From positions 195,501-259,500 of the forward strand of contig JACQJH010000001.1 in NCBI GenBank assembly GCA_016205145.1: 64,000 nucleotides of DNA. The letters run 5' to 3'. Positions 21,464 through 63,029 of the stretch are shown here, piece after piece. The notes below the pieces were generated by a model that was not told the origin of the DNA, made no database searches, and worked only from the letters and a program-made list of their open reading frames with translations. How positions within the stretch are numbered: position 1 is the stretch's first letter; each line of letters begins with the position of its first letter. The stretch is from Candidatus Iainarchaeum sp. (lineage in GTDB: Archaea; Iainarchaeota; Iainarchaeia; Iainarchaeales; JACQJH01). A program made the position numbers and the translations under genes.

Positions 21464-21625
21464 TCGCCCGCACCGGGAGTCGGACCCGGCCCACGGCCTC
21501 GCTGCATTGCAGTACTCCATAAAAGAAACTTTTCTTTCTTTTTGGGGTAAAGCACTTTTTCTTTCTTCGCAAGAAAGAAAAAGGGCTTCGACAGGGCCGT
21601 ATCCTAGCCGATAGACCATACGGGC
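21464..21625 (-). tRNA. tRNA-Asp(GTC) with a ~90-nt intron at the canonical 37/38 position (introns 21499..21588)
   Basis: The minus-strand 5' exon GCCCGTATGGTCTATCGGCTAGGATACGGCCCTGTCG runs through acceptor, D-arm and anticodon stem CGGCC with loop CTGTCG. The 3' exon A-GGCCG-TGGG-CCGGG-TCCGACT-CCCGG-TGCGGGC-G pairs perfectly in the anticodon and acceptor stems. The D-stem has two G-U pairs and the T-loop has C at position 55, so it may be diverged. Confidence 0.55.
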
Positions 21626-33816: not shown

Positions 33817-34140
33817 AATTTAAAAGCATATATTAGGGGGCACAATTTAAAAATTGTGTAATAATTCCCTCCTCCCTGATTTGCACAGGGGATCTCACCG
33901 TTGCCGCTTTTTTCGCGGCGCAACAGCGTTCTTTCGAACCTGCTGCCCAGCCATTCAAGGCAGTGCACAAGAGCGTGCACGAAAATCTACAGCGGTGCGT
34001 GTTAGCTACTACACCAAGGAGGGCTCGGCATGCTGCCGAGCGTGCAGCCTTGTGGTATCGCTGACGCGATACCACGCGTGCCCGCCCAAAACAGTTCCTG
34101 CCGGCTAATTATTTGTTTCACTCAATCGTTTTAAATGTTT

Positions 34141-41420: not shown

Positions 41421-41590
41421 TCGTAGAATTTGTGGAACTTTGTGTGCAGAATGCCTTCGCCTTGTTCAGTCTTTCAGTCATTCCGGTTCAATTCCTGATG
41501 GCAATGGGCCTTTTGCAGTTCGCCACAGCCATGCCTGGCGCAACAATCGCGTTCCCGGTTTACTTTCCCAGAAACGCAAAAAATTAGGAA

Positions 41591-41736
41591 TGCCCCGGCC
41601 GGGATTCGAACCCGGGTCGCGGCCTCACCCCGCTCTTGAATTTTTTGGAAAATCCTTGAGAGGGCCGAGTGCTTTCGGCAACAGCTGCTTTTTTTTATAA
41701 AAACAAACCGTTTTAGCCGGACTACACCACCGGGGC
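41591..41736 (-). tRNA. tRNA-Glu(CTC) carrying two introns (about 40 nt in the D-loop plus about 31 nt at 37/38)
   Basis: Exon 1 GCCCCGGTGGTGTAGTCCGGCTAAA, exon 2 CACTCGGCCCTCTCA, exon 3 AGGCCGCGACCCGGGTTCGAATCCCGGCCGGGGCA. Once spliced it matches the archaeal tRNA-Glu/Gln scaffold (D-arm GTGTAGTCCGGC, T-arm CCGGGTTCGAATCCCGG). The anticodon stem CGGCC/GGCCG is perfect. Confidence 0.65.
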
Positions 41737-42498
41737 ACTGCAGAATTTTTTGAACCTGTTTATGTGCTTTTTGTTGCTGAACCCGATTTCAGTGAAATAA
41801 CGCAGGACTTCTTTAGAATCTCCCATTGAGCACTGCATTGTATTCCTGTCCTTCTTTTGGGTCCATTTAGATACTCTGTAGCCCAATATTTTAAATGCCT
41901 TTGTTATGCTGCTTTGGATTGTAGGCGATGCCGTGGCGAACCAGATTGTGGGCGTTTTGTGCCTGCGCGTTTTCGGGTAAACGCTTCCGTCAGTGTCAAT
42001 CAATCCCCTGACACAGGCTTTAAGGTAACCGCTTTTTCCAAGAACCCAGCAGGGAATTGCCGCGCCATTCGTGGTTTTATTGCCGTTTTTTATGCCAAAA
42101 TGCATCAGCGTGTGCACCAAATTTTTGCTTTGCTTGAATATGACGACAGCGTTTCCGGTTTTTGGAAATTTTATGCTGAATTCGGTTCCAAACACTTTTT
42201 TGAACAGGCCCGAAGTATAATTTGTCAGATAATCAAAATCGTTCCCGCGATGGCCTATAATTCTTATTTGGTAAATGCTTTTTTCTTTTATAACCTGGCA
42301 GTTTCCGTCGCCAAGCATTATGCCGATAATTTCCGCAAGCTCCGCGCTTTTCTTTTTTGCAAGCAATTTCGGTTTCATCGGCAAGAATTTGCCGTTCTTC
42401 CGCGGCTGCAGCCGGCAATTACCCATAATGTACTGTTGTTTTTGTGGACAAAAGGGGTTTGCCAAGTGGCTTTCCCCTGATTCTTGATTTGGCCTCAC
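41722..42498 (-). CDS. Free-standing LAGLIDADG-family homing endonuclease (two LAGLIDADG motifs)
   Basis: Motif 1 AEIIGIMLGDGN and motif 2 RGLIDTDGSV are separated by about 100 aa, the arrangement of single-chain LAGLIDADG enzymes. The 3' end overlaps the 5' end of tRNA-Glu by about 15 nt. Confidence 0.75.
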   Translation of the reverse strand: MRPNQESGESHLANPFCPQKQQYIMGNCRLQPRKNGKFLPMKPKLLAKKKSAELAEIIGIMLGDGNCQVIKEKSIYQIRIIGHRGNDFDYLTNYTSGLFKKVFGTEFSIKFPKTGNAVVIFKQSKNLVHTLMHFGIKNGNKTTNGAAIPCWVLGKSGYLKACVRGLIDTDGSVYPKTRRHKTPTIWFATASPTIQSSITKAFKILGYRVSKWTQKKDRNTMQCSMGDSKEVLRYFTEIGFSNKKHINRFKKFCSAPVV

Positions 42499-46786: not shown

Positions 46787-46932
46787 AAAACACTCTCCAT
46801 GAAAACGAATTTATGCCGATTCGGCATTTTTGCCTGTCTAAAAGCAGTAAAAACTCCTCTACGAAACCCATTAAAAAACTAACTAAAAATTACGAAAAAC
46901 GTATGGACCGTTTTGCCTTAAAAAAGAAAATT

Positions 46933-47041
46933 TGCCGGTGGCGAGATATGAACTCGCGGCCTCTTGATTATGAGTTTCGCCCCGCAACACAAAAAAGCTG
47001 AATTGCAGTCAAGCGCTCTAACCAGGCTGAGCTACACCGGC
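46933..47041 (-). tRNA. tRNA-Cys(GCA) with ~34-nt intron at 37/38 (intron 46969..47002)
   Basis: The 5' exon GCCGGTGTAGCTCAGCCTGGTTAGAGCGCTTGACTGCAA and the 3' exon ATCAAGAGGCCGCGAGTTCATATCTCGCCACCGGCA give perfect acceptor and anticodon stems. The T-loop TTCATAT is slightly atypical. A TATA-like CTTTTAAAAGCC sits about 35 nt upstream. Confidence 0.6.
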
Positions 47042-47070
47042 AAACTCAATTCGGTTAGGCTATGATTTTT

Positions 47071-50538: not shown

Positions 50539-51747
50539 ATGTTCCGCTGGCTCAAAAACCTGTTCAGGCCGTCAAGAGGCCCGCACTATTTGATTGAATT
50601 CAGGTTTCATGGTTACACAAAAAAGTATCTGAAGGAAACCATTTTTGACGTCTCGAAAAAGTTCCGCGTTTCAGGCGTTACCAAAAAGCACGTTGTTCCG
50701 CATATAAGCTTGGTTGGGCCGTTTCAAACAAGAAACCAAAGAGAAGTCGTGTCCAAGTTTGTGAACGTGTCCAAAAAATATGGGCGCATAAACTTCAAGT
50801 TGTCAGGATTCCGCCACTTTGACGATCGGGTGGTTTTCGTTGATGTCGAGTCTTCCTCTGAACTGGCCAAATACCGGCAAGACCTGTTCAAAAGCTTGGA
50901 GCCAGTCATTTACACGACCGACACCGACTACCTTGAACCATTCGCGTTCCATTCTACAGTCGCCTTCAAAGACATCCAACACAAATTTGACAGGATTTTC
51001 TCCTATTTGGATAAACAAAAGCCTAAACAAATAAACCAAACCCTGCTCAGGGCCACGTTGTTAAAAGGCGGAAAAATTCTATGCGAATACGATTTCATTC
51101 AAAAAAGGCTGCTCAAACGGAAAGAGGCACTAGACAAAAAACTAATGAAAAAGACGATTGGCATATTGAAGGAAACCAAAAACGCGGACATCACAAAAAT
51201 ACCTGAATTTACGGCCAAAGAAAGCGAAGGAAAACGCACTTTTCTTATAAGCGACCTCCACTTGGACCATGCCAATATTATAAAATTCTGCAAAAGGCCA
51301 TTCAAGAATGTCGAAGAAATGAACCGCGCACTAGTTGATAATTGGAACAAAACTGTCTCTAAAAACGACACGGTTTATTTTTTGGGTGATATGGCATATG
51401 GCAAAAACAGCAGGTCGGCAAAATACTGGCTTTCCAAACTAAACGGCAAAATAGTGTTCATTGAAGGCAATCATGAGGATATTGGCAACATGAAATCATA
51501 CACGCAAATAATACTAAATTTTGGGCAAGAACGATTTCTCTTAATTCATGATCCAGCGCTCAAACCAGCCGACTGGCAAGGATGGGTTATCCACGGGCAC
51601 AAACACAACAACGATTTGTCTGGTTACCCATACATTAACAAAAAAAACAAAACAATCAACGTAAGCGCAGAATTGGTAAATTACACCCCAAAACGGTTAG
51701 ATGAGGTTTGCAAAGAAATTGGGGTGTTTGAATTCAAGATTCTTTAG
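50539..51747 (+). CDS. Fusion protein: N-terminal 2H phosphoesterase (LigT/2'-5' RNA ligase-like) + C-terminal calcineurin-like metallophosphoesterase
   Basis: Two H-x-S/T-x motifs (HISLV, HSTVA) about 85 aa apart in the N-terminal half. Metallophosphatase motifs (LISDLHLD ... GDMAYG ... GNHED ... GHKH) in the C-terminal half. Confidence 0.7.
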   Translation: MFRWLKNLFRPSRGPHYLIEFRFHGYTKKYLKETIFDVSKKFRVSGVTKKHVVPHISLVGPFQTRNQREVVSKFVNVSKKYGRINFKLSGFRHFDDRVVFVDVESSSELAKYRQDLFKSLEPVIYTTDTDYLEPFAFHSTVAFKDIQHKFDRIFSYLDKQKPKQINQTLLRATLLKGGKILCEYDFIQKRLLKRKEALDKKLMKKTIGILKETKNADITKIPEFTAKESEGKRTFLISDLHLDHANIIKFCKRPFKNVEEMNRALVDNWNKTVSKNDTVYFLGDMAYGKNSRSAKYWLSKLNGKIVFIEGNHEDIGNMKSYTQIILNFGQERFLLIHDPALKPADWQGWVIHGHKHNNDLSGYPYINKKNKTINVSAELVNYTPKRLDEVCKEIGVFEFKIL

Positions 51748-52280: not shown

Positions 52281-53555
52281 TTATTCCAAATCCCAAAGCT
52301 CTTTGAGCGCGTCAAGCCTGACTGTTTTCTGTTCGCCGGTTTCAAGGTTTTTGACTGCAAGCTCTTTTTTCTGCAGTTCGTCTTCGCCGGCAATAATCGC
52401 GAATTTGATACCCTGCTTGCTTGCGAATTCAAGGTTTTTTGAAATGCCCCTTCCAACCAAATCAATGTCAGTGTTCAGGCCCAGCCTTCTCATTTCCTGC
52501 ACGATTTTAAGGCATTCTTTTTGCGTTTTTCCGATCGGAATGACAAAGAATTTCACCGGGTTTTCTACGCCGAGCTTTTCTTCGACGACATCAAGGAGCC
52601 TGTCGATTCCAAAAGAAATGCCGATTGCCGGTGTAGGCGAACCGCCATAGCTTTCAATGAGATTGTCATATCGGCCGCCCCCGCCGCAGGAAATTCCCGC
52701 ACTTGAAACCTCGAAAACGTTTCCAGTGTAATATTCCAATCCGCGTGCCAGGCTAAGGTCGACTTTTACTTTTTTTGACAGGCCGTTTTCTTCAAGCAAA
52801 TCCAATAGTTCTTTGAGTTCCTTGAACCCGTCTTTTTCTTTCACGTCCTTGGGCAGGCCTTCGAAATCGTTTTTCTTGAGCGTTTCAATGATCTTGTCGG
52901 AAATGCCTTTTTGTTCCAATTCCTTCCTGACTTCTTCTTCGCCGATTTTTTCCAGTTTGTCCAGGCTCCTGAAACAGTCCTTGATTTGGCGTTCTTCCAC
53001 GCCATTCGCCTGCGCGACGGCTTCGAGCAGTTTTCTGTTATTCAGCCTTATGTAGAAATCAACGTTTATTTCTGAAAAAAATTCGGCTGCAAGCGCAATC
53101 AGTTCAAAGTCAGCGAAAACGCTTTTCACTCCGATGATGTCGGCATCCGCCTGTGTAAACTCGCGATACCTTTTTGCGCCCGGCCTGTCATACCGGTAAA
53201 CCCTTTCGATCTGGTAGCGCTTGAACGGTTTCGGCAGCTGCGGGTTTGTTGCTATGACACGTGCCAATGGAACCGTCAGGTCGAAGCGCAGGCCAAGCTC
53301 TCTCTCGGACTTGTCCTTGAAGTAGTAGATTTCTTCCTTGATTGCCTCGCCGCCAGAGCCTTTCTTTGCAAGCAAGGCGAAGTCTTCCACGACGGGCGTC
53401 TGCATTGGCTGGAAACCGTATTTTTCAAAGATGCGCCTGGCTAAACCTTCGAGGAAAAGTTTTTTGCGCGCCTGTTCGGGCAGGATGTCGCGCATTCCCC
53501 TTATCGCCTGGAATTTTTCTTCAGCCATGCAATTCACTTTCAGATTTCCTGTCAA
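52281..53555 (-). CDS. hisS: Histidyl-tRNA synthetase
   Basis: Class II aaRS motifs and HisRS-specific blocks (FQAIRGMRDILP, FKRYQIERVYRYDRP, GGGRYDNL). Confidence 0.9.
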   Translation of the reverse strand: MTGNLKVNCMAEEKFQAIRGMRDILPEQARKKLFLEGLARRIFEKYGFQPMQTPVVEDFALLAKKGSGGEAIKEEIYYFKDKSERELGLRFDLTVPLARVIATNPQLPKPFKRYQIERVYRYDRPGAKRYREFTQADADIIGVKSVFADFELIALAAEFFSEINVDFYIRLNNRKLLEAVAQANGVEERQIKDCFRSLDKLEKIGEEEVRKELEQKGISDKIIETLKKNDFEGLPKDVKEKDGFKELKELLDLLEENGLSKKVKVDLSLARGLEYYTGNVFEVSSAGISCGGGGRYDNLIESYGGSPTPAIGISFGIDRLLDVVEEKLGVENPVKFFVIPIGKTQKECLKIVQEMRRLGLNTDIDLVGRGISKNLEFASKQGIKFAIIAGEDELQKKELAVKNLETGEQKTVRLDALKELWDLE

Positions 53556-53617
53556 AATCCCATAAAAGGGCTATGGTTTATAGCCGCCCGCTTCATTCCG
53601 TGGCATTGTCCAAACTT

Positions 53618-54265
53618 TTATTCCGAACGCGCTGGCTTTCTGACGTGGAATACTCTTGTCGGATAAGTTCCCGGAATAGGTTTTGTGTTTTCCGTGATTA
53701 TTTCAAATCCTGCGGCTTTGAGTTCGCTATGCCAGGTGTTTATCTCTTTTTGTCCGCCTATTTGGATGAGCATGTTGAATTTGGCTTCCCCGCCCGGCCT
53801 GAGTATTCGGTATAATTCGGCAAAGGCTGTGCTTTTGGGCGTTGCGTGTGCTATGCCGAAATGCGAGTAAACAAAGTCGAAGTAATTGTCTGGGCGGCGC
53901 GTGTTGTGCGCGTGCGCAACATGCCATAAAACGTTTTCTTGTCCGCGCCATTCCGGGGCGCGCTTTAAGCTGAGGCCATGTGCTTCCATTTCGGGGTATT
54001 CTCTGGCAAGTTGCATGATGCTTGTTCCTTCTTTACAGCCTAAATCAAGGACCCTGATTTTTCTGTCAGGCGTTGCTTGGTGAATCCTTCTTATGTCCTC
54101 GATATTAAACCCCAGATTTTGGTAAATTGTTGGCAGGCCGGTTTTGCTCACCGACCACCTGCACAGGGGCCTGTTTCCTTCGTAAAGTTTGATTATGTCT
54201 CTGAGTCTTCGGCCCACTTTTGCCCTATCTTCAGGGGATTCGGGTTTTCTATGGCCCGGTTCCAA
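53618..54265 (-). CDS. Class I SAM-dependent methyltransferase (Methyltransf_11-like)
   Basis: Motif I VLDLGCKEGTS and motif II/III spacing in a 215-aa protein. Confidence 0.75.
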   Translation of the reverse strand: MEPGHRKPESPEDRAKVGRRLRDIIKLYEGNRPLCRWSVSKTGLPTIYQNLGFNIEDIRRIHQATPDRKIRVLDLGCKEGTSIMQLAREYPEMEAHGLSLKRAPEWRGQENVLWHVAHAHNTRRPDNYFDFVYSHFGIAHATPKSTAFAELYRILRPGGEAKFNMLIQIGGQKEINTWHSELKAAGFEIITENTKPIPGTYPTRVFHVRKPARSE

Positions 54266-54333
54266 AAAGACACCTCATTCCAAATCCCACCGCTCTTTTA
54301 GTTCGTCGAGTTTGACTGTTTTTTGTTCGCCAT

Positions 54334-54716
54334 TTACTTTTTTGCTTTTTTTGCCTCATTCATTTTCGCTTTTGCTTTAAGGATTTGCCCTATCTCCGCG
54401 GCCGGCGCTTTTTGGTCGAACCTGATTTGAATGGTTTTTTTTCCGGTCACATAACCTTTTTCTTCGAGCGCTTTGCGGTCTTTACTTTGAAGCGCGAACG
54501 CCAGGCCGAAGCCGGCGTGGCTCTTGAATGCGGCAAACCCGGCAAGAAGGCCCTGGTATTTGTAGAATGGCACGCCCCAGCTGATGCTTTCCTCCGCCTT
54601 TGGCACGGCTGATTTGATTATTTTCCTGATTTCCTTGAGCGTCGGCTGCGCTTCTATGCCTGCGCCGGCAATGTACTCGTCGACGTTTTTTGCGCTGTAA
54701 TTTTTCACTATTCCAC
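54334..54716 (-). CDS. DUF1801 (YdhG/YjbR-like) domain protein
   Basis: C-terminal 125 aa of track ORF 54334..54993 ([16 protein letters not shown]...[28 protein letters not shown]). The upstream part of that ORF overlaps hisG in another frame. The likely start is a GTG near 54716. Confidence 0.5.
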
Positions 54717-55604
54717 GACCTTGTTCAAGGGAAACTCGACTATGCCTTCCGCGCCGGCACCCTTCAGTTTCGGAATGAGCGTCCTGACGTCGTCTATTTT
54801 GACGATTGTGAGAACGTCGAACCAGCCTTCCTTGGAAAGCTTTGAAACCGTTGGATTGTTCAATGATGGCAGGACTTTGAGGACTTTTTGCAGGTTTTTT
54901 TCCTGCACGTTCATCATCAACCCCGCAAGGGTTTGCGCCGCGATTGCGCCTTTGAGCAGGGTTGCGATTTCGTCGATTTTCTTTCTCTTCCACAAATCCT
55001 TTGCCGCGCCTTTGTTTGCAATCAGTTTCGTGTTGCTTTCCATGAGCGTTTCGACAATGCGCAGGCCGTTCGCGCGCAAACTGCTTCCGGTTTCAGTCAC
55101 TTCAACGATTGCGTCGGCAAGCGTCGGCGGCTTGACTTCGGTTGCGCCCCATGAAAATTCCACTTCGGCTTTGACGTTGTTTTTTGCAAGCCATTCCTTT
55201 GTGAATCCCACAAGTTCGGTTGCGATCCTCTTTCCCTGCAGGTCCTTCACGCCTTTGATTTTCGAGTCGTTCGGCACAGCCAGAACCCATTTGACCCTTC
55301 CAAGGCCGGATTTTGCGTAAACAAGGTCCGCGATTTCGTCAACGCTTGACTTGTTTTCAAGAATCCAGTCCTTTCCCGTCAAGCCAAGGTCGATTGCGCC
55401 CTGTTCGACGTAACGCGACATTTCCTGCGCCCTGATGAGCACGCACTCTATTTCATCGTCGTTTATTTTCGGGTAATACGAGCGCTCTTCCGCGCGGATG
55501 TCATAACCGGCTTTCTTGAACAATTCTATTGTCGAATTCTGCAGGCTTCCCTTGGGGATGCCAAGCTTGAGTTTTTTGCCGCTTCCATCTTCTTTGCCTT
55601 TCAT
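54708..55604 (-). CDS. hisG: ATP phosphoribosyltransferase (long form with regulatory domain)
   Basis: 298 aa ([23 protein letters not shown] ... [13 protein letters not shown]) plus a C-terminal ACT-like region. Confidence 0.9.
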
Positions 55605-56650
55605 TTCAATTCCTCCGCTTTCCTGAAAAAACAGCTCCTCTTGCCCGTGTGACAGGCAACATTGCCTTCCTGCTTCACTTTAAGAAGAATCGCGTCGTTG
55701 TCGCAGTCAAATCTCACTTCCCTGACAATCTGGAAGTTTCCGGAAGTTTCGCCTTTCACCCATAATTTTTGCCTGCTTCTGCTCCAATAGCAGGCCTTTC
55801 CTTCTTTCAGGGTGCGGCGAAGGCTTTCCCTGTTCATGTATGCAAGCATAAGCACTTCTCCCGTATTCCAGTCCTGTGCGATTGCAGGCAGCAGGCCGTT
55901 TCCCTTTTCAAAGTCAAGTTCATCGGGCAGGATGTCGGATAATTTTATCTTGCTAGTGTACAATGACATGCCCAATGCGCAGTCCACGCCGATGCCTTCA
56001 AGCCTGCGCGCCTCTTCAAGCGAGGCAATCCCGCCGGCGGCAATGATGCGGTTTTTCGTTGCCTTGCGAAGCCTTTGCACCGCTTCAAAGTCGATGCCTT
56101 TCATGAGGCCCTCTTTTTCCACGCACGTGAACAGGAATGCAGAGCACAGGCCTTCAAATTCTTTCGCCTTTTGCAAATAATCCGCCCCGGTTTTTTCCTG
56201 CCAGCCTTTCACAACAACCTCGCCTTTCCATGAATCCAATGCAACAATGATTTTTTCCTTTCCAATTTGCGCGCCAAGCTTTTGCAGGAATTCCTTGTTT
56301 GCGGCACTGCCGATGATGACGCGCTTTGCGCCAGCGCCGATGAGCGCTTTGGCTTTTTCCACGCTGTCGATTCCGCCGCCGGTGTTTGCATTCACGACAG
56401 AGCAGATTTTTTTGACGGTTGCGAGATTTGAGCCTATGCGTTTTGCCGCGTCCAAATCAATGACCTGCACTTCCCTGAAAGCGGAGAATTTTTCCGCGAA
56501 TTTTTCGGGAGCAGACGCTATGCGAATCTTCTCGGTTTTGCCCTGCTGCAGCTGGACAACTTTTCTGCCTTTCAAGTCAATGCTTGGCAACAACATTTTC
56601 ATTCCCTCACTACAATTCCCTTTTCTTTCAGGTATGCCTTGACTTTCCAC
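55601..56650 (-). CDS. hisA-hisI: Bifunctional fusion: ProFAR isomerase (HisA) + phosphoribosyl-AMP cyclohydrolase (HisI)
   Basis: The N-terminal ~240 aa are a HisA TIM barrel ([15 protein letters not shown] ... GGGIDS ... IAAGGIAS). The C-terminal ~105 aa are HisI ([50 protein letters not shown] ... [11 protein letters not shown] ... ACHTG). Confidence 0.8.
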
Positions 56651-57378
56651 ACCGGAAACTCGTTGAAATGGAAAATGCTTGCGGCAAGCGCGGCATCGGC
56701 CTTTCCTGTTTCAAATACATCCACAAAGCTTTCAAGGTTTCCCCCGCCCCCGCTTGCAATGACTGGAACGTTAACGCTTTCCGAAACCGCTTTTGTCAGT
56801 TCGAGGTCGAAGCCCTCTTTTGTTCCGTCGCGGTCCATGCTTGTCAGGAGGATTTCGCCTGCGCCAAGTTCAACCGCTTCTTTCGCCCATTCGAGGGCGT
56901 TTTTTCCCGTGAATTTGCGGCCGCCGTATTTCGAGCACTCCCACCAGACTTTTCCTTTCTCTTCCCTTTTTTTCGCGTCAATCGCCAGCACGACTGCCTG
57001 GTTGCCATACGCTTTTGCAATCTCCGAAATGAGGCGAGGCCTTTCCAGCGCGGCAGTGTTTATGCTTACCTTGTCCGCGCCTGCTTCGAACACACTTTTT
57101 GCGTCCGCCAGTGAGCGTATTCCGCCCCCGACAGTTAACGGCACGAAAACTTCCTGCGCGGTTTTTTCGATTACGTCAACCATTGTTTCTCTTCTCTCGG
57201 AACTTGCGGTGATGTCCAGAAAGACGATTTCGTCAGCGCCCTGCGCGTAATACGCTTCGGCCTGCTCCCACGGCACGCCGGCGTATTTTATTTCCTTGAA
57301 CTGGACTCCTTTGACGACTCTTCCTTGCGCGACCGAAAGGTCGCAGTCCAGACAGGGAATGATTCGTTTTGCGAGCAT
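56599..57378 (-). CDS. hisF: Imidazole glycerol phosphate synthase cyclase subunit
   Basis: 259 aa beginning [16 protein letters not shown], with HisF barrel motifs ([11 protein letters not shown] ... GGGIRS). Confidence 0.9.
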
Positions 57379-57390
57379 TTGAAACCAGTT

Positions 57391-57795
57391 TTATTCTCTA
57401 TTCATTAATTCAGTTTGAACGCGGGTGTACATTGTAATTAATCCATTTGCAATAATGTCCGTTGTGTGTTCGGGCTGTTCTGTCGTGCGTTCGTGTTCTA
57501 TTTCAATGAACCGGTTTATCCTTTCCATTGTGCTTTCAAGGACTTCCGTGGGAATGCTTGTGAGCGGCCTATTGCGTTCAACCAATCTTAGTGTCAGCCT
57601 TTCGAGTTGCTGGTCTGGGCCCAATCCGGTTTCCAGCAATTTTTGCAGTTCCGGAATCACATGTTGCTGGGCCGGCATATCCGTTCCGGGGACGGTATGT
57701 GTCGATTCTCTCACATCTTGCCCAAAATAACCCTGCGCTATATTCCGGAAACGTTCTTTAAGCCCTTCCGGGTGCGCCTCATGTCGTCTCTCCAT
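57391..57795 (-). CDS. Hypothetical 134-aa protein embedded in the his operon
   Basis: ORF between hisF and hisH on the same strand with short spacers. No similarity to HisE that I can recognise. Confidence 0.4.
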   Translation of the reverse strand: MERRHEAHPEGLKERFRNIAQGYFGQDVRESTHTVPGTDMPAQQHVIPELQKLLETGLGPDQQLERLTLRLVERNRPLTSIPTEVLESTMERINRFIEIEHERTTEQPEHTTDIIANGLITMYTRVQTELMNRE

Positions 57796-57804
57796 AGTAT
57801 CACC

Positions 57805-58407
57805 TCAAATTTCAACAAAATTCTCCAGCACCTTAAGTCCAGCGGCTCCGCTTTTTTCCGGGTGGAATTGCACGGCAAAAACGTTGTCTTTTTCAACAGC
57901 GGAACAGTATTTTCCGCCGTAATCGGTTTCGCCAGAGACGATGTCCTTGTCGAACGGCTTGGCATAATAGCCGTGCACGAAATAAAAGAACGAATTGTCG
58001 GGAACATCCTCGAGCAGCGCGCTTTCCTTTGCCTTTTCGACCTGGTTCCAGCCGATCTGGGGAACTTTCAGGTTTTTTCCTTCAAATTTTTCAACCGTGC
58101 CCTGCAAAACTTTCAGGCCTTCGCTTTCAGGGCTTTCCGCGCTTTCCTCGAACAGCGCCTGGAGGCCGATGCAGATGCCGAGGAAAGGCTTTCCTTCCTC
58201 GATTGCCCATTCGATTGCGTAGTCCAGTTTTTTTTCGCGCAGTTCGCGCATTGCCTCGCCGAAATTGCCCACGCCGGGAAAAACGACCTTGCTCGCTTTT
58301 CCCACCTGTTCAGGAGTTTTCGCAATGACTGCCTTTTCGCCGATTTTTCGGAAGGCGTTGCGGACGCTCTGCAAATTGCCCCTGCCATAATCAATGATTG
58401 CAATCAT
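57805..58407 (-). CDS. hisH: Imidazole glycerol phosphate synthase glutaminase subunit
   Basis: Class I GATase triad context (GICIGLQ ... HPE) in a 200-aa protein. Confidence 0.9.
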   Translation of the reverse strand: MIAIIDYGRGNLQSVRNAFRKIGEKAVIAKTPEQVGKASKVVFPGVGNFGEAMRELREKKLDYAIEWAIEEGKPFLGICIGLQALFEESAESPESEGLKVLQGTVEKFEGKNLKVPQIGWNQVEKAKESALLEDVPDNSFFYFVHGYYAKPFDKDIVSGETDYGGKYCSAVEKDNVFAVQFHPEKSGAAGLKVLENFVEI

Positions 58408-59036
58408 AGCATTCCCTTGGTGCTCGGCAAAAACTTCTGCCGCCTGTCAAATTCAACCGCGCAACGCAACGCGCGCGCGAAAGCCTTGAACAGCGCTTCA
58501 ACCAGGTGGTGTGCATTCTTTCCGTAAACAACTTTGACGTGGATGTTTGCCTTCAGCTCGTTTGCCACTGCCTGGAAGAATTCTTCCACAAGCTCGGTCG
58601 GAAACCCGCCGATGCGGTCGAGCGGAAACTTTGCGTCGAACACAAGCTTTGGCCTGCCGCTCAAATCAATCGCGCAGAACGCAAGGCTTTCATCCATTGG
58701 CACGTATTCCCAGCCGTACCTTGCAATGCCCTTTTTGTCGCCAAGCGCTTTAGCTATTGCCTGTCCGAGGACAATGCCGGTATCCTCGACAGTGTGGTGC
58801 AAATCCACTTCCAAGTCGCCTTTTGCCTCAAGCGAAACGTCGATGAGGCTGTGCTTGGAGAAAAGTTCGAGCATGTGGTTGAAGAACCCGATTCCGGTTT
58901 CAATTTCATACCTGCCTTCGCCGTCAAGGTTTACCGAGGCTTTGATTTTGGTTTCAGTGGTGTTCCGTTCAATCTCCGCTTTCCTCACGAATGATTTCGC
59001 CTTTTTTTCGTTTGCCTTTCCTTTGCCTTCGCTCAT
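58404..59036 (-). CDS. hisB: Imidazoleglycerol-phosphate dehydratase (monofunctional)
   Basis: IGPD motifs (GIGFFNHMLE ... DLHHTVEDTGI). Confidence 0.9.
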   Translation of the reverse strand: MSEGKGKANEKKAKSFVRKAEIERNTTETKIKASVNLDGEGRYEIETGIGFFNHMLELFSKHSLIDVSLEAKGDLEVDLHHTVEDTGIVLGQAIAKALGDKKGIARYGWEYVPMDESLAFCAIDLSGRPKLVFDAKFPLDRIGGFPTELVEEFFQAVANELKANIHVKVVYGKNAHHLVEALFKAFARALRCAVEFDRRQKFLPSTKGML

Positions 59037-60124
59037 TTCGTTTCACCCAAAACCTTTTCCAGCGCGGAGCAGAATTTTTTCATCTGTTCTGGCGTGCCGA
59101 TGCTGATGCGGATGCAGCCTTCCAGTCTCTCATAACCGCTCCTGTCCCTTACAAGGAAGCCTTTTTCCTTAAGCTTTTCGGCGATTGCTTTGGCGTTTTT
59201 GCCAAAGCGTGCGACGAGAAAATTCGACTTGCTCGGAAAGCGCTTCACGCCTTTTTCGTCAAGGAACTTTTCAAGAATTGCGCGCCCCGCTTCAACCTGT
59301 TTCACATAATCCTGCATGTAAGCCGGGTCCTTCAGCGCTTCCGTTGCCGCGAGCGCGCTCAAAGCGGTGATGCTGTAAGGCGACTTCGCCTTTTTCAGCG
59401 TTGAAATGATTTTTTCGTTTCCCAGAGCGTATCCGATGCGCATTCCGCCGAGGCCCATTGCCTTTGAAAAGGTTTTGAGCACGACAAGGTTGTCGAACTC
59501 TCCAATCCTGCCGGCAACGGTTTCTTTCGTGAATTCCGAGTATGCTTCGTCGACGATTGCCAGGCAGCCTTCCGCCCGCGCGGCCCTGATGATTTCGATG
59601 AGGTCTTTTTCCGGAATTTCGGTGGCAGTCGGATTGTTGGGGTTGCAGAGAATGACTGCCCGGCTGCCCTTGATTTCCGCGAGCACTTTTTGCGTCGGAA
59701 ATGAGAGGTCTTCATTGTACAGCGGCTTTGCAATTTTCGCCCCTTGCAGTTCAGCGTAAAAGTAAAACATGGCAAAGCTCGGAGTCGGAATCACGATCTT
59801 TCCGTTGCCCACAAAGCATTCAATGCATCCGCGGATGGCCTCATCCGAGCCGTTGAAGGGCACGGCGTTTTCCGGCTTCGCGTTGTTGTAATCCGCAATC
59901 GCTTTTGTCAGCTCCGAGTATTCCGGATACGCGGACAGCCTTTCCGCTGAAACGTTTTTGATTGCCGTGAGAACGCGCGGGCTTGGGCCGAGAGTGTTTT
60001 CGTTGAAGTCAAGCCTCATTTTGCCCAGCCTGCTGGCTGTCGGAGGATTGTACGGCTTGAGCTTTTTCACATTGCCGGTTTCGGAAATCATTTCATTCAC
60101 TTCCCGCATGCTCCGGCTTTCCAA
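59033..60124 (-). CDS. hisC: Histidinol-phosphate aminotransferase
   Basis: Class II aminotransferase, 363 aa, with the PLP-Lys context FSKAMGLGGMRIGY. Confidence 0.9.
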   Translation of the reverse strand: MESRSMREVNEMISETGNVKKLKPYNPPTASRLGKMRLDFNENTLGPSPRVLTAIKNVSAERLSAYPEYSELTKAIADYNNAKPENAVPFNGSDEAIRGCIECFVGNGKIVIPTPSFAMFYFYAELQGAKIAKPLYNEDLSFPTQKVLAEIKGSRAVILCNPNNPTATEIPEKDLIEIIRAARAEGCLAIVDEAYSEFTKETVAGRIGEFDNLVVLKTFSKAMGLGGMRIGYALGNEKIISTLKKAKSPYSITALSALAATEALKDPAYMQDYVKQVEAGRAILEKFLDEKGVKRFPSKSNFLVARFGKNAKAIAEKLKEKGFLVRDRSGYERLEGCIRISIGTPEQMKKFCSALEKVLGETK

Positions 60125-62303
60125 AAAGCTTTGGCAGTTCGTTTATGTCTTTCAACACGGCGTCCGCGCCTTTTTCCAAATAAAATTTTTTGCCCGGCGA
60201 GAACGCGCCCGTCAAAACCATTGCGCAAAAATTGCCTTTCAGCGGGCCGCCCGCGTTTTTCACCATTTCAAGGTCGTCAATCATGTCACCCACATACAAA
60301 ACCTTTTCGGCATTGAGCCTTTTTTTCATCCATTCCAGCGGCGCGGCGTTTGGTTTCAACTTTCCGCCGGTTTCGCTTGCGGTTTCATCCGAAAAAATGT
60401 TTTCTTTTGCAATCGCCGCTGCAAGGCCGCATCTTTCAAGGCAAAGCATTGCTTCGTTGAACGTGCGCCCGGTTATCACGCCGAGCTTTTTGCCGTTGTT
60501 TTTCAGCCACTCGACGGTTTTCCTTGAAACAATCATTTTTTCGTTTTCGCAAAGCCCTTTTTTCACGCCCAATCTTGCCGGTTTGCCGAAAAACTCCGTG
60601 AAACGCCTTTCGCCGAGGTATAGTTCCTCGAACGCGTCCATGATTTTTTCGCGGTCGTATTCGCGTGCAATGCTTTCCCACTTTTGGCCGGCAATCTGCC
60701 TTGCAGCCCTTTCTGCGCCTTCAAAGCCTTTGTCCAAGCCGATTTTCGGGGCGAATTCTTCCCCGCTTACGCGAAAGCCGTTTTTTTGCAGCAACGCAAC
60801 CAGGCTTAAAGCATAGGCAACGTGCCAGTCGTTGTTGAATCCCCCCAAGCGCTTGAACAAAGCGGTTTTCTGCACCGGAAACCTTTTTCCGTACAAAACT
60901 TCGACCGCTTTCACTGTTGCAATCCTGTAAGTGTTGCTTACATCTGCCAGCACGCCGTCAATGTCCAAAACAATCGCGTCAACGCCAGAAAACCCGCTTC
61001 CGGGCGCGCTTTTTCCGCGGTCCAAGCGTATTTCAACGCTTTTTTTGTGCGCTTCAAGGCCCTCGGAATCAGCCATTGCACCAATCGTTTTTTGCAGGCC
61101 TTTCAGGCCTTTTTCAGAGATTTTCTGGAACGCGATGACCTTGACAAAGTCCCTTGCCGACAGGCCAGCGCGTTGTTTTGCCGTTCCGCCGGTTGGCAGG
61201 ACGTGATTTGTGCCGGAACAGTAGTCTCCCGCGGCTACCGGGCTGAAGTCTCCGAGAAAAACGCTTCCAGCCGCGCTTATTTGCGGCAGAAGCCTTTCCG
61301 CCCTGCCGAAAAGCACCAAGTGTTCCGGGCCGATTTGGTTCACGATGCCCGCGCAGTCCTGCAGATCCCTTGCAATGACAACAGCCGAATTGGTTTCAAG
61401 CGCCCTGCGTGCTGTTTCGGCATTCTTTGCTGTTTCAAGCTGAACCGAAAGCGCGGCTTTGGCTTTTTCTGCGAGCGCCCTGTCCGGCGTGACAAGAATG
61501 CAGACGCTGTTTGAGTCGTGCTCGGCCTGCGTCAAAAGCTCGGCCGCAACGATTTTCGCGTCGGCTTTCGAGTCCGCTACAACGCACACCTCGCTCGGCC
61601 CGGCAACAAAATCAATGGAAACCTGGCCGAAAACAAGCCTTTTCGCGGTTGCGACAAAAACGTTTCCCGGCCCGGCAATCTTTTGCACGCGCGGCACGGT
61701 TTTGGTGCCGAATGCCATTGCGGCAATTGCCTGGCTTCCGCCCAGAGTGAAAATCCTGTCCACGCCGGCGATGTCGGCTGCGACAAGCACGAGCGGGTTA
61801 GTGCCATCCTTTTTCGGCGGAGTGCACATCACAATCTCTTTCACGCCCGCGGCTTTCGCAGGCAAGGCATTCATCAAAACGCTTGAAGGCAAAGGATACC
61901 TGCCCGCTGGAACATAAATGCCGACAACGTCCAATGGCCTGACAATTTCCCCAACAACCACGCCTTGCGCATTTTCAGTTTTCCATTCTTTCGGCAGCTG
62001 CCTTTTTGCAAAAGCAAGAATGTTTTTTTTCGCGAGCTTCAAGGCTTCAACCTGTGCCTTCGAAACTTTGGAATAAGCCGCCTTAATCTCCGCACTGCTC
62101 ACTTCCATGCTTTCAGGGGAAAGCCGCACGCCATCGAATTTTTCCGAAAACGCAATCAGCGCGGAATCGCCTTTTTCCCTGACTTCCGCGATAATGCTTC
62201 GGACGGTTTCTTCGACATTCTTGTCCGGCGCCTCCAGCCCGGCAAGGAACGCTTCAAGCTCTCCGGGTTTTTCGGCGGTTATTTCTTTCAGCATGTAGAC
62301 CAC
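60093..62303 (-). CDS. hisD: Fusion: histidinol dehydrogenase (HisD) + C-terminal HAD-superfamily phosphatase domain (candidate histidinol-phosphatase)
   Basis: The N-terminal ~430 aa are HisD (zinc/NAD motifs QAEHDS ... DYCSGTNHVLPT). The C-terminal ~300 aa carry HAD motifs I (VLDIDGVLAD), II (VITGR) and III/IV (YVGDMIDDLEMV). Confidence 0.85.
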   Translation of the reverse strand: MVYMLKEITAEKPGELEAFLAGLEAPDKNVEETVRSIIAEVREKGDSALIAFSEKFDGVRLSPESMEVSSAEIKAAYSKVSKAQVEALKLAKKNILAFAKRQLPKEWKTENAQGVVVGEIVRPLDVVGIYVPAGRYPLPSSVLMNALPAKAAGVKEIVMCTPPKKDGTNPLVLVAADIAGVDRIFTLGGSQAIAAMAFGTKTVPRVQKIAGPGNVFVATAKRLVFGQVSIDFVAGPSEVCVVADSKADAKIVAAELLTQAEHDSNSVCILVTPDRALAEKAKAALSVQLETAKNAETARRALETNSAVVIARDLQDCAGIVNQIGPEHLVLFGRAERLLPQISAAGSVFLGDFSPVAAGDYCSGTNHVLPTGGTAKQRAGLSARDFVKVIAFQKISEKGLKGLQKTIGAMADSEGLEAHKKSVEIRLDRGKSAPGSGFSGVDAIVLDIDGVLADVSNTYRIATVKAVEVLYGKRFPVQKTALFKRLGGFNNDWHVAYALSLVALLQKNGFRVSGEEFAPKIGLDKGFEGAERAARQIAGQKWESIAREYDREKIMDAFEELYLGERRFTEFFGKPARLGVKKGLCENEKMIVSRKTVEWLKNNGKKLGVITGRTFNEAMLCLERCGLAAAIAKENIFSDETASETGGKLKPNAAPLEWMKKRLNAEKVLYVGDMIDDLEMVKNAGGPLKGNFCAMVLTGAFSPGKKFYLEKGADAVLKDINELPKLFGKPEHAGSE

Positions 62304-62305
62304 GT

Positions 62306-62368
62306 GCCAAGTAAAGGCTTACTTGGCATATTGCGCAGCAATATGCCTTGGTTTCGCACCCGCCGGGC
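62306..62368 (-). repeat. tRNA-His 3' trailer: H1'-H2 hairpins between tRNA-His and the hisD start
   Basis: CGCCGTCATCGCCCGGCGGG TGCGAAACCAAGGCATATTGCTGCGCAATATGCCAAGTAAG. The same 35-nt start CTCGCCGTCATCGCCCGGCGGGTGCGAAACCAAGGC recurs at 12601..12636 on the plus strand. Confidence 0.75.
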
Positions 62369-62604
62369 GATGACGGCGAGGCCTGTGCCGGGAATCGAGC
62401 CCGGGCCGGGGGATAACTGCAACCATGCGGTTTTTCGCAAACCTTTTTGGAAAAGGTTTCTTGCGGTTTTTCGCAAACCTTTTTGGAAAAGGTTTCTTGC
62501 GGTTTTTCGCAAACCTTTTTGGAAAAGGTTTCTTGCGGTTTTTCGCAAACCTTTTTCCAAAAGGTTTCCACAGTCCCCAATGCTGCCACTACACCACACA
62601 AGCC
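62369..62604 (-). tRNA. tRNA-His(GTG) with encoded G-1 and a 164-nt intron at 37/38 (intron 62404..62567)
   Basis: The 5' exon is G-1 plus GCTTGTGTGGTGTAGTGGCAGCATTGGGGACTGTGG. The 3' exon ATCCCCCGGCCCGGGCTCGATTCCCGGCACAGGCC gives a perfect anticodon stem GGGGA/TCCCC, and the acceptor stem has one G-U. The discriminator is C73, as expected for tRNA-His. Intron flanks AAACC...GGTT can pair as in BHB motifs. Confidence 0.75.
62416..62559 (-). repeat. Four tandem 36-nt palindromic repeats making up most of the tRNA-His intron
   Basis: Three copies of GCGGTTTTTCGCAAACCTTTTTGGAAAAGGTTTCTT plus one variant; each unit contains an AAACC...GGTTT inverted repeat. The track ORFs 62254..62601(-) and 62425..62778(+) are periodic-translation artefacts of this array. 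Confidence 0.9.
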
Positions 62605-62670
62605 ATTCGGCGGTTTCGTCCGCCGGGTTCGACGACGGGTACTTCGCTGCGCTCAGTACCCATCTGTTCT
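62605..62670 (-). repeat. tRNA-His 5' leader hairpins (module D/E)
   Basis: Plus strand CGGCGGTTTCGTCCGCCG GGTTCGACGAC GGGTACTTCGCTGCGCTCAGTACCC. Near-identical copies lie at 664..706 (plus) and 21307..21350. Confidence 0.7.
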
Positions 62671-62880
62671 TTTTCGTATTATCCTCTGCCGCTAAAAGGT
62701 TTTCCGCCGCGAATCCAGCCTGAGGGCTGGGTTGCGTTGAAAACAGGCTTTCAGAGTTACTTCTATTCAAGAATTTAAGAGAATTTTCATACGATGTGAA
62801 GTAACTCACTTTTCATTCTGAAAACCTGAAATAATCTGCCTATGCAAGGTTTAAATACCTATGCGGCGGCGGGAATTCGT

Positions 62881-63029
62881 GCTTACTCGGCCATTGCAAC
62901 GCAATGGCCTTGGTTCCGAACGCAGGGGGCTTCGCCCCCTCACCCGTCCCCAATCATTTACTACTGCTTACTCGGCGTATTGCGCTGGCAATACGCCTTG
63001 GTTCCGAACCAGCCGGACGGAACCGGCTT
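62881..63029 (-). repeat. tRNA-Leu 3' trailer: full hairpin cassette
   Basis: H1 AAGCCGGTTCCGTCCGGCTGG; H2 TTCGGAACCAAGGCGTATTGCCAGCGCAATACGCCGAGTAAG; spacer CAGTAGTAAATGATTGGGGACGGGTGA; H3 GGGGGCGAAGCCCCC; TGCG; H4 TTCGGAACCAAGGCCATTGCGTTGCAATGGCCGAGTAAGCAC. Confidence 0.8.

Follow-up and report, generated by a model that had tools for sequence, protein, structure and literature searches.

The 64-kb stretch of DNA analyzed here (hereafter, the window) carries a tRNA-His(GTG) gene on its minus strand, at positions 62380–62604, whose two exons are separated by an intron between tRNA positions 37 and 38. Intron-aware ARAGORN (ARAGORN -i) places this gene at c[62378,62604] and gives it an intron of 153 nt at 37/38 and a spliced length of 72–74 nt (72 nt for the bounds used here), whereas the gene goes unreported both by default ARAGORN and by the Rfam tRNA model, be it at the gathering score or at E ≤ 1. 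The 5′ exon, GGCTTGTGTGGTGTAGTGGCAGCATTGGGGACTGTGG (62568–62604, minus strand), consists of G-1 (62604) and positions 1–37, with the GTG anticodon at 62569–62571, and the 3′ exon, ATCCCCCGGCCCGGGCTCGATTCCCGGCACAGGCC (62380–62414, minus strand), covers positions 38–73, C73 being position 62380. According to ARAGORN -i, the anticodon stem (GGGGA/TCCCC) is perfect and the encoded G-1 pairs with C73; no CCA is encoded, and the spliced tRNA aligns end to end with intronless orthologues. It is the only tRNA-His found in the window. An earlier note on this DNA, made by reading the sequence, had named the isotype, the anticodon, the G-1/C73 pair, and the canonical intron position, all of which were recovered by the kind of intron-detecting tRNA finder it had proposed as a check, yet some of its particulars have to be amended: the intron is 153 nt long (62415–62567) rather than 164 nt, the gene ends at C73 rather than at 62369 (a boundary taking in 11 nt of the 3′ trailer), and the coding strand is the minus one. 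The archaeal host that the note had assumed agrees with the lineage of the organism (Archaea; Nanobdellati (DPANN); Iainarchaeota), with window proteins named Candidatus Diapherotrites, and with RNA polymerase subunits that are split in the archaeal manner.

The intron is made almost entirely of a tandem repeat, which begins at the first intron base and spans 142 of the 153 bases, so that three full 36-nt copies and one 34-nt copy are followed by an 11-nt tail (all minus strand). Unit 1, AAACCTTTTGGAAAAAGGTTTGCGAAAAACCGCAAG (62532–62567), has a GG variant of the hairpin loop, units 2 and 3 (62496–62531 and 62460–62495) are identical 36-mers with a CC loop, and the 34-nt unit 4 (62426–62459) matches them over its length; units 2–4 are thus identical, and unit 1 differs from them by two adjacent bases (GG vs. 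CC). TRF reports a single array at 62426–62568 (period 36, 4.0 copies, 98% matches, score 272), which stands far ahead of all other tandem repeats of the window (scores ≤70), and the 34-nt unit core has four matches against 0.00 expected from shuffles, both of which bear out the fourfold 36-nt palindromic array described in the earlier note. Every unit holds a palindrome with 9-bp arms (AAACCTTTT/AAAAGGTTT) and folds into two hairpins, one of 9 bp (AAACCUUUU/AAAAGGUUU) and, after it, a small one with a GCG/CGC stem; neighbouring units can also pair in alternative registers. The units are joined strictly head to tail without spacers; a CRISPR array was ruled out, as there are no unique spacers between the repeats. 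The unique tail, TGGTTGCAGTT (62415–62425), supplies the 3′ strands of an outer helix (GGTT, 62421–62424) and of a central bulge–helix–bulge (BHB) helix (GCAG, 62417–62420), along with two bulge bases. Arithmetically, one unit and the tail make 45 nt, and 45 + 3 × 36 makes 153 nt.

Together with the exons, the intron ends can, by sequence, form an hBHBh′ motif. Its 5′ half (62563–62578, minus strand) comprises the anticodon-stem strand GGGGA (62574–62578), the central strand CUGU of tRNA positions 32–35 (62570–62573), the 3-nt bulge G36 G37^A (62567–62569), and the outer strand AACC (62563–62566), and the 3′ bulge UU^A38 (62414–62416) and the anticodon-stem 3′ strand UCCCC (62409–62413) occupy 62409–62416 on the same strand. 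C32 U33 G34 U35 pair with GCAG (intron positions 148–151) in the 4-bp central helix, AACC (intron positions 2–5) pairs by sequence with GGUU (positions 144–147) in the 4-bp outer helix h′, and the 5-bp anticodon stem serves as the flanking helix h, the 5′ bulge being made of G36, G37, and the first intron base, and the 3′ bulge of the last two intron bases and A38. All 13 pairs are Watson–Crick or G-U at the positions required by the motif, and the chance of a random insert satisfying the eight intron-dependent pairs is ~4e-4. Two 3-nt bulges around a 4-bp helix with symmetric cleavage sites, the criterion of an archaeal BHB intron, are therefore found here, and the BHB-forming intron ends suspected in the earlier note have stood up to the junction fold that it called for, the central helix being part of the minimum free energy (MFE) structure (P ~0.54). 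The motif-constrained fold (−85.6 kcal/mol) lies 1.9 kcal/mol above the MFE (−87.5 kcal/mol), and the ensemble probability of the outer helix AACC/GGUU is as low as ~0.008, both of its strands finding better partners in the repeats and in a local AACC-GCAU-GGUU hairpin; judging by these folds, an endonuclease needing a strict pre-formed hBHBh′ might cut poorly here.

In each bulge of such a precursor, the archaeal splicing endonuclease (EndA) would cleave behind the second base; the exons would then be ligated by an enzyme of the RtcB type, which would probably also close the intron into a circle, RNase P would leave the encoded G-1, and CCA, since none is encoded, would be added after transcription. 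These steps follow established knowledge of archaeal splicing (PMC7714728, PMC4090602), from which we infer that the intron is spliced out and probably circularised. Neither a splicing endonuclease nor an RtcB-type ligase is among the 10 window proteins scanned, and the presence of at least three other intron-containing tRNA genes in the window implies that the splicing machinery must be active in the host. ARAGORN -i finds ten tRNA genes in the window, of which up to five, tRNA-His included, are interrupted, the remainder of these (all on the minus strand) being a tRNA-Asp(GTC) with an 89-nt intron of A/T-rich hairpins at 37/38 (21465–21625), which is missed by both default ARAGORN and Rfam; a 158-nt candidate of uncertain identity that ARAGORN calls a second Asp (33866–34023); a tRNA-Trp of 146–148 nt (41590–41737), which Rfam matches to its 71-position tRNA model over 146 nt; and a tRNA-Cys of 109–111 nt with a 34-nt intron by ARAGORN (46932–47042), which is also seen by Rfam. 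Long tRNA introns are thus usual for this host. A 402-aa protein with a 2′-5′ RNA ligase (2H phosphoesterase) superfamily domain is encoded at 50539–51747 on the plus strand, ~0.5 kb from hisS; proteins of the 2′-5′ RNA ligase class handle the cyclic-phosphate RNA ends made by splicing endonucleases.

Several other identities and sources of the intron were considered and rejected. Transposition from the Asp, Cys, Trp, or 33866-candidate introns is disfavoured by alignment scores not above those of dinucleotide shuffles (the best, to Asp in global mode, was reached by 74 of 2000 shuffles, uncorrected for 8 tests). The 11-mer TTTTCCAAAAA shared with the tRNA-Trp intron probably reflects chance (2 matches outside the array vs. 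0.72 expected), and an origin from flanking sequence was dismissed, as only 9–10-mers are shared with the tRNA leader, at an uncorrected shuffle p of ~0.01–0.05, and were judged compositional. A self-splicing group I intron was likewise rejected: such introns have a conserved ribozyme core and are typically >200 nt, whereas 153 nt of tandem hairpins are present here, with no Rfam intron family at E ≤ 1. Further copies of the unit were sought by mismatch pattern searches and blastn-short, which returned nothing beyond chance-level ≤13-mers in the masked window, and none were found in 18 related loci or in IMG/VR. No target-site duplication is seen at the ...GTGG|AAACC ... GCAGTT|ATCC... junctions, and, with dispersed copies lacking from the 64-kb window, the related loci, and IMG/VR, an inserted MITE or other mobile element was rejected as well. 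Neither a C box (RUGAUGA) nor a D box (CUGA) occurs on either strand of the intron, no snoRNA/sRNA family of Rfam matches it at E ≤ 1, and Rfam at E ≤ 1 over 62200–63000 yields nothing but miRNA-like hairpin noise far below gathering scores; with no C/D boxes and no Rfam family, the embedded small RNA suggested in the earlier note finds no support.

The locus was compared across a set of five syntenic loci, consisting of the window; L006 (ENA), which has the same sequence as L008 (JGI); L010 (GCA_964540145.1); L014 (ENA); and L018, an ENA scaffold from another study, metagenome, and assembly, which was found via a spurious ORF called over the locus. L006 (HisD 85% identical at the aa level) and L008 show tRNA-Leu(CAG), the same leader, an intronless 72-nt tRNA-His, and hisD, and L010 and L014 (HisD ~52–53% identical) have an intronless tRNA-His immediately upstream of hisD and share the promoter and the leader motif with the window. 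When aligned, L006, L010, and L014 lack the intron at exactly the 37/38 point, whereas L018 has a homologous intron of 135 nt at the same site and with the same ends. The leader of L018 is 92% identical to that of the window, its exons are alike but for one base, and over the first 460 nt of hisD it is 85.5% identical to the window at the nucleotide level, vs. 79.7% for L006. Its intron opens with a GG-type unit 1 and ends ...AAAAAGGTTTGCGAAAAAACGCATGGTTGCAGTC, a tail that matches the one in the window except for the last bulge base (T to C) and leaves the splice motif intact (central helix P ~0.70; motif fold 2.7 kcal/mol above the MFE). The interior is different: the comparison of 36-mer copy number among relatives, as proposed in the earlier note, gave one intact unit and a second one split by a ~50-nt insert of other hairpins in L018, with no tandem array by TRF, so that the intron ends are conserved and the interior is variable. 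The window flanks on both sides of the tRNA are collinear with L006 and L018. Spliced, the window tRNA-His differs from its L006 orthologue at five positions, two of which make up a compensatory change of the acceptor pair 2:71 (C:G in the window, U:A in L006), and the exons therefore remain under tRNA constraint. A genome-collection scan with HisD gave only Methanothrix (~50% identity, no tRNA-His nearby), and a metagenome scan with the 5′-exon pattern led to L008 alone, which comes from the same organism as L006.

All six reading frames are open across the repeat. A coding role was rejected, these frames being repeat-derived pseudo-ORFs, and exact look-ups of the ORFs covering the repeat gave no matches, the proteins being on record solely as the spurious calls P0130 and P0131, two pseudo-proteins that sit in public protein collections. 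Gene callers put a spurious ORF of 149–173 aa across the leader, tRNA-His, and intron in the window (62288–62809, minus strand), where the repeat reads as the peptide repeat NLFQKGLRKTAR, and a matching spurious ORF is found in L006 (813–1262) and L018 (56–562).

The tRNA-His gene stands at the head of a histidine “supra-operon” running along one strand of the window (52281–62857, minus strand), the linkage of which was compared with L006, L010, L014, and L018. The order in the window is a TATA-like box, AGGTAT(T/A)TAAACC (62850–62857, minus strand), conserved in all five loci; the leader; tRNA-His; a hisD-HAD fusion; hisC; hisB; hisH; an ORF of unknown function; hisA; hisF/I; hisG; two small genes; and hisS, which closes the cluster (52281–53555, minus strand). 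The his genes run through hisG in the window and L010 and, elsewhere, as far as the contig reaches, and hisS ends the cluster in the window and L010, the contigs of the other three loci stopping before that point. The distance from tRNA-His to hisD downstream of it is 85–185 nt across all five related loci (85 nt in the window); no report of a tRNA-His/his-operon linkage in archaea was found in the literature, an absence that is not proof. The hisD-HAD fusion (60093–62294, minus strand; 733 aa) joins histidinol dehydrogenase to a HAD-family hydrolase at its C-terminus (presumably the histidinol-phosphate phosphatase) and is also seen in L006 (730 aa), the HAD domain being a separate gene after hisD in L010/L014 and fused to hisC in L009.

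The leader itself has some conserved features. The sequence ATGAA.(A/G)GTGA.TTACTTCAC begins 22–33 nt downstream of the TATA-like box in all five loci and opens a mini-ORF (window 62787–62816, minus strand; L010 5652–5711; L014 939–998; L006 806–850; L018 49–78), which, given this short distance, would possibly be leaderless. In L010 and L014, it has 19 codons and encodes a Cys-rich M(N/K)G(D/E)LLHGCDGCPGCGPPQ*, and all nine nucleotide differences between the two fall at third codon positions, which suggests that it is translated there; of the peptide, only MKSELLH is kept in the window, L018, and L006. TTACTTCAC, which holds the single His codon of the mini-ORF, is invariant in all five loci; the element could be an operator located where transcription starts, or else a leader peptide or something like an attenuator. 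The tRNA-His leader also holds a perfect inverted repeat of 10 bp (minus strand), GAAGTAACTC (62754–62763) lying 34 nt downstream of GAGTTACTTC (62798–62807); the GAGTTACTTC arm overlaps the mini-ORF, and an A-to-G change in L006 keeps a G-U pair. Between tRNA-His and hisD, 31 nt upstream of the hisD ATG, there is a 23-bp perfect palindrome, GGCATATTGC-TGC-GCAATATGCC (62325–62347). At this place L006 and L018 read GGCGTATCGC-TGT-TGCGACACGCC, which amounts to one mismatch and two double changes of the compensatory kind, and the palindrome could either fold into an RNA hairpin or be bound by a dimeric regulator.

The explanation that we hold with considerable confidence is that a Diapherotrites (DPANN) archaeon has, at this locus, a functional tRNA-His gene with a canonical protein-spliced intron, which was gained in one small lineage and of which only the splice-motif ends are conserved. 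The gain would have taken place in the common ancestor of the window lineage and L018, once this ancestor had diverged from the intronless lineage of L006; a single gain is the simplest history by parsimony over the five loci and their pairwise identities. Fast restructuring of the interior would have followed and, in the window lineage, a very recent threefold tandem duplication, in which replication slippage or unequal recombination, favoured by the hairpins, would have amplified one 36-nt hairpin unit; the identity of units 2–4, with unit 1 off by two bases, points to a very recent amplification. Selection would act only on the splice-motif ends, leaving the interior as a fast-changing string of A/U-rich hairpins, and the array itself, being discarded, is most likely functionless and selectively neutral. 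Of the suggestions made in the earlier note, it is replication slippage that the comparison favours, L018 having kept the intron ends and not the array, and the fourfold array is probably a neutral slippage expansion specific to the window.

How many copies there truly are is a question of its own, as the four-copy figure rests on one short-read MAG assembly. It is unlikely, though by no means negligibly so, that the intron is real while the figure is an assembly artefact, the true array being shorter, longer, or polymorphic in the population. Three identical 36-mers (a ~124-nt exact repeat) come near the span limit of 150-nt reads, the array is not spanned by any independent contig, and Logan contigs end at 62374 and inside the tRNA-Leu/Arg region; the assembly graph would seem to branch close to the locus, the assemblies of two runs both breaking at 62374. 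A chimeric join, on the other hand, is spoken against by the collinear flanks, the array is anchored by the distinguishable unit 1 and the unique tail, and L018 independently shows the unit already duplicated in this intron family. The two contigs in question (L001 and L002, from SRR12113383 and SRR12113384) match the window at 100% identity and both end exactly at 62374, 6 nt downstream of C73, a shared stop that suggests, besides the branch, possible strain heterogeneity at the locus.

We consider it quite improbable that the tandem hairpin array is itself functional, whether as a small (circular) RNA that is released, as a platform for multivalent protein binding, or as a device setting when tRNA-His matures with respect to the his operon that directly follows. 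The stable 9-bp hairpins, four in number and evenly spaced, within the strongest tandem repeat of 64 kb would suit such a role, as would the 85 nt to hisD without an intervening T-run of ≥5, and archaeal introns are known to circularise, the tRNA-Trp intron of Haloferax volcanii even carrying a guide RNA (PMC7714728). In L018, the closest intron-bearing relative, the interior is different, however (one intact and one interrupted unit, other hairpins), which means that the array is not conserved even at ~85–92% flanking identity; the intron has no C/D or other boxes and no Rfam match beyond the miRNA-like noise, and no further unit copy exists in the window, the 18 related loci, or IMG/VR. The protein-binding array of the earlier note thereby loses the conservation of its arrangement and is left as a possible role of small probability. 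Fuller still is the reading, to which we would give slender odds, of a single histidine “supra-operon” transcript made of the promoter, the His-codon mini-ORF, tRNA-His, hisD to hisG, and hisS, with the intron array as a lineage-specific cis element whose folding or splicing would modulate leader processing and so couple tRNA-His supply to his-operon expression; such a device, if real, would parallel attenuation or T-box logic in an archaeon.

A dead tRNA-His gene, its anticodon loop hit by a repeat or mobile-element insertion while another copy elsewhere serves translation, would be in keeping with standard tRNA finders not calling it, and is nonetheless highly improbable: the insertion lies exactly at 37/38 with ends complementary to its own anticodon loop, shows neither a target-site duplication nor other copies in the window or the related loci, and sits in a gene that occupies the conserved syntenic slot of intronless tRNA-His genes, bears a compensatory acceptor-stem change, and is kept, interrupted and with intact exons, in a second lineage (L018). 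Least probable of all is a DNA-level array of four 21-bp palindromic operator sites at 36-bp spacing, through which a dimeric regulator would control tRNA-His and/or the his operon, as the perfect palindromes (9-bp arms, 3-bp spacer) at fixed spacing 130–270 bp upstream of hisD are predicted equally well by RNA hairpins, and the sites are missing from L006, L010, and L014, which share the operon and leader, are not kept as an array in L018, and have no counterpart elsewhere in the window.

As a canonical intron of a functional gene, the insert resembles the 37/38 introns of H. volcanii (tRNA-Trp, 103 nt; tRNA-Met, 75 nt; tRNA-Gln, 31 nt) in its position, its two 3-nt bulges, its 4-bp helix with anticodon-loop bases, and in the EndA and ligase processing with a circular intron product, which would be expected here as well (PMC7714728). 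It differs from them in being longer (153 vs. ≤103 nt), in being built of a tandem minisatellite rather than of unique sequence, in lacking the box C/D guide of the tRNA-Trp intron, and in being limited to a very narrow lineage, unlike those classic examples; no report of a tandem-repeat-built (minisatellite) archaeal tRNA intron was found in the literature, which, again, does not prove that none exists. Recent intron gain and heterogeneity in archaeal populations have been described for the tRNA-Thr of Caldiarchaeum subterraneum (PMC3293823), as has a proliferation of tRNA introns in the Thermoproteales (reviewed in PMC4090602 and PMC4033280), and, as in those cases, close relatives differ here in intron presence at an orthologous tRNA, and the interior turns over rapidly. 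Unlike in those cases, the tRNA-His locus has no adjacent recombinase or mobile element, the intron position is canonical, and there is no significant similarity to other window introns and no sign of transposition.

Within the DPANN, the tRNA-His of Nanoarchaeum equitans is split, being broken at 37/38, and its halves would be joined via a BHB-type motif. The isotype, the break point, and the superphylum are thus the same as here, whereas the halves of the present gene are contiguous on one transcript, 153 nt apart, and need no trans-splicing. Split tRNAs have been reviewed elsewhere (PMC4033280), and incomplete tRNA sets of DPANN genomes have been linked to undetected disrupted genes (PMC5829648), a situation resembled by the present gene in its being missed by default ARAGORN and the Rfam model, albeit because of the intron length at a canonical site and not of a non-canonical position or a relaxed motif.

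The finding of the earlier note is therefore real and its interpretation correct, the canonical BHB intron mechanism being known and ordinary, and the size, the repeat composition, and the recent origin of the intron being what is unusual. In practical terms, default tRNA finders are blind to the interrupted gene, so that MAGs of this group would be wrongly scored as lacking tRNA-His, and gene callers add to the problem by laying spurious ORFs (P0130 and P0131) over it. Archaeal tRNA introns are rarely caught young, and here five syntenic loci bracket one gain, providing a natural series on intron origin and growth (intronless, 135 nt, and 153 nt, with a 45-nt one-copy form deduced by arithmetic), in which constraint is seen only at the splice-motif ends, the interior being altered by duplicated units and by insertions. 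With its 153 nt and with repeats that compete against the outer helix of its own splice motif, the intron is, moreover, a natural stress test of the substrate tolerance of the DPANN splicing endonuclease.
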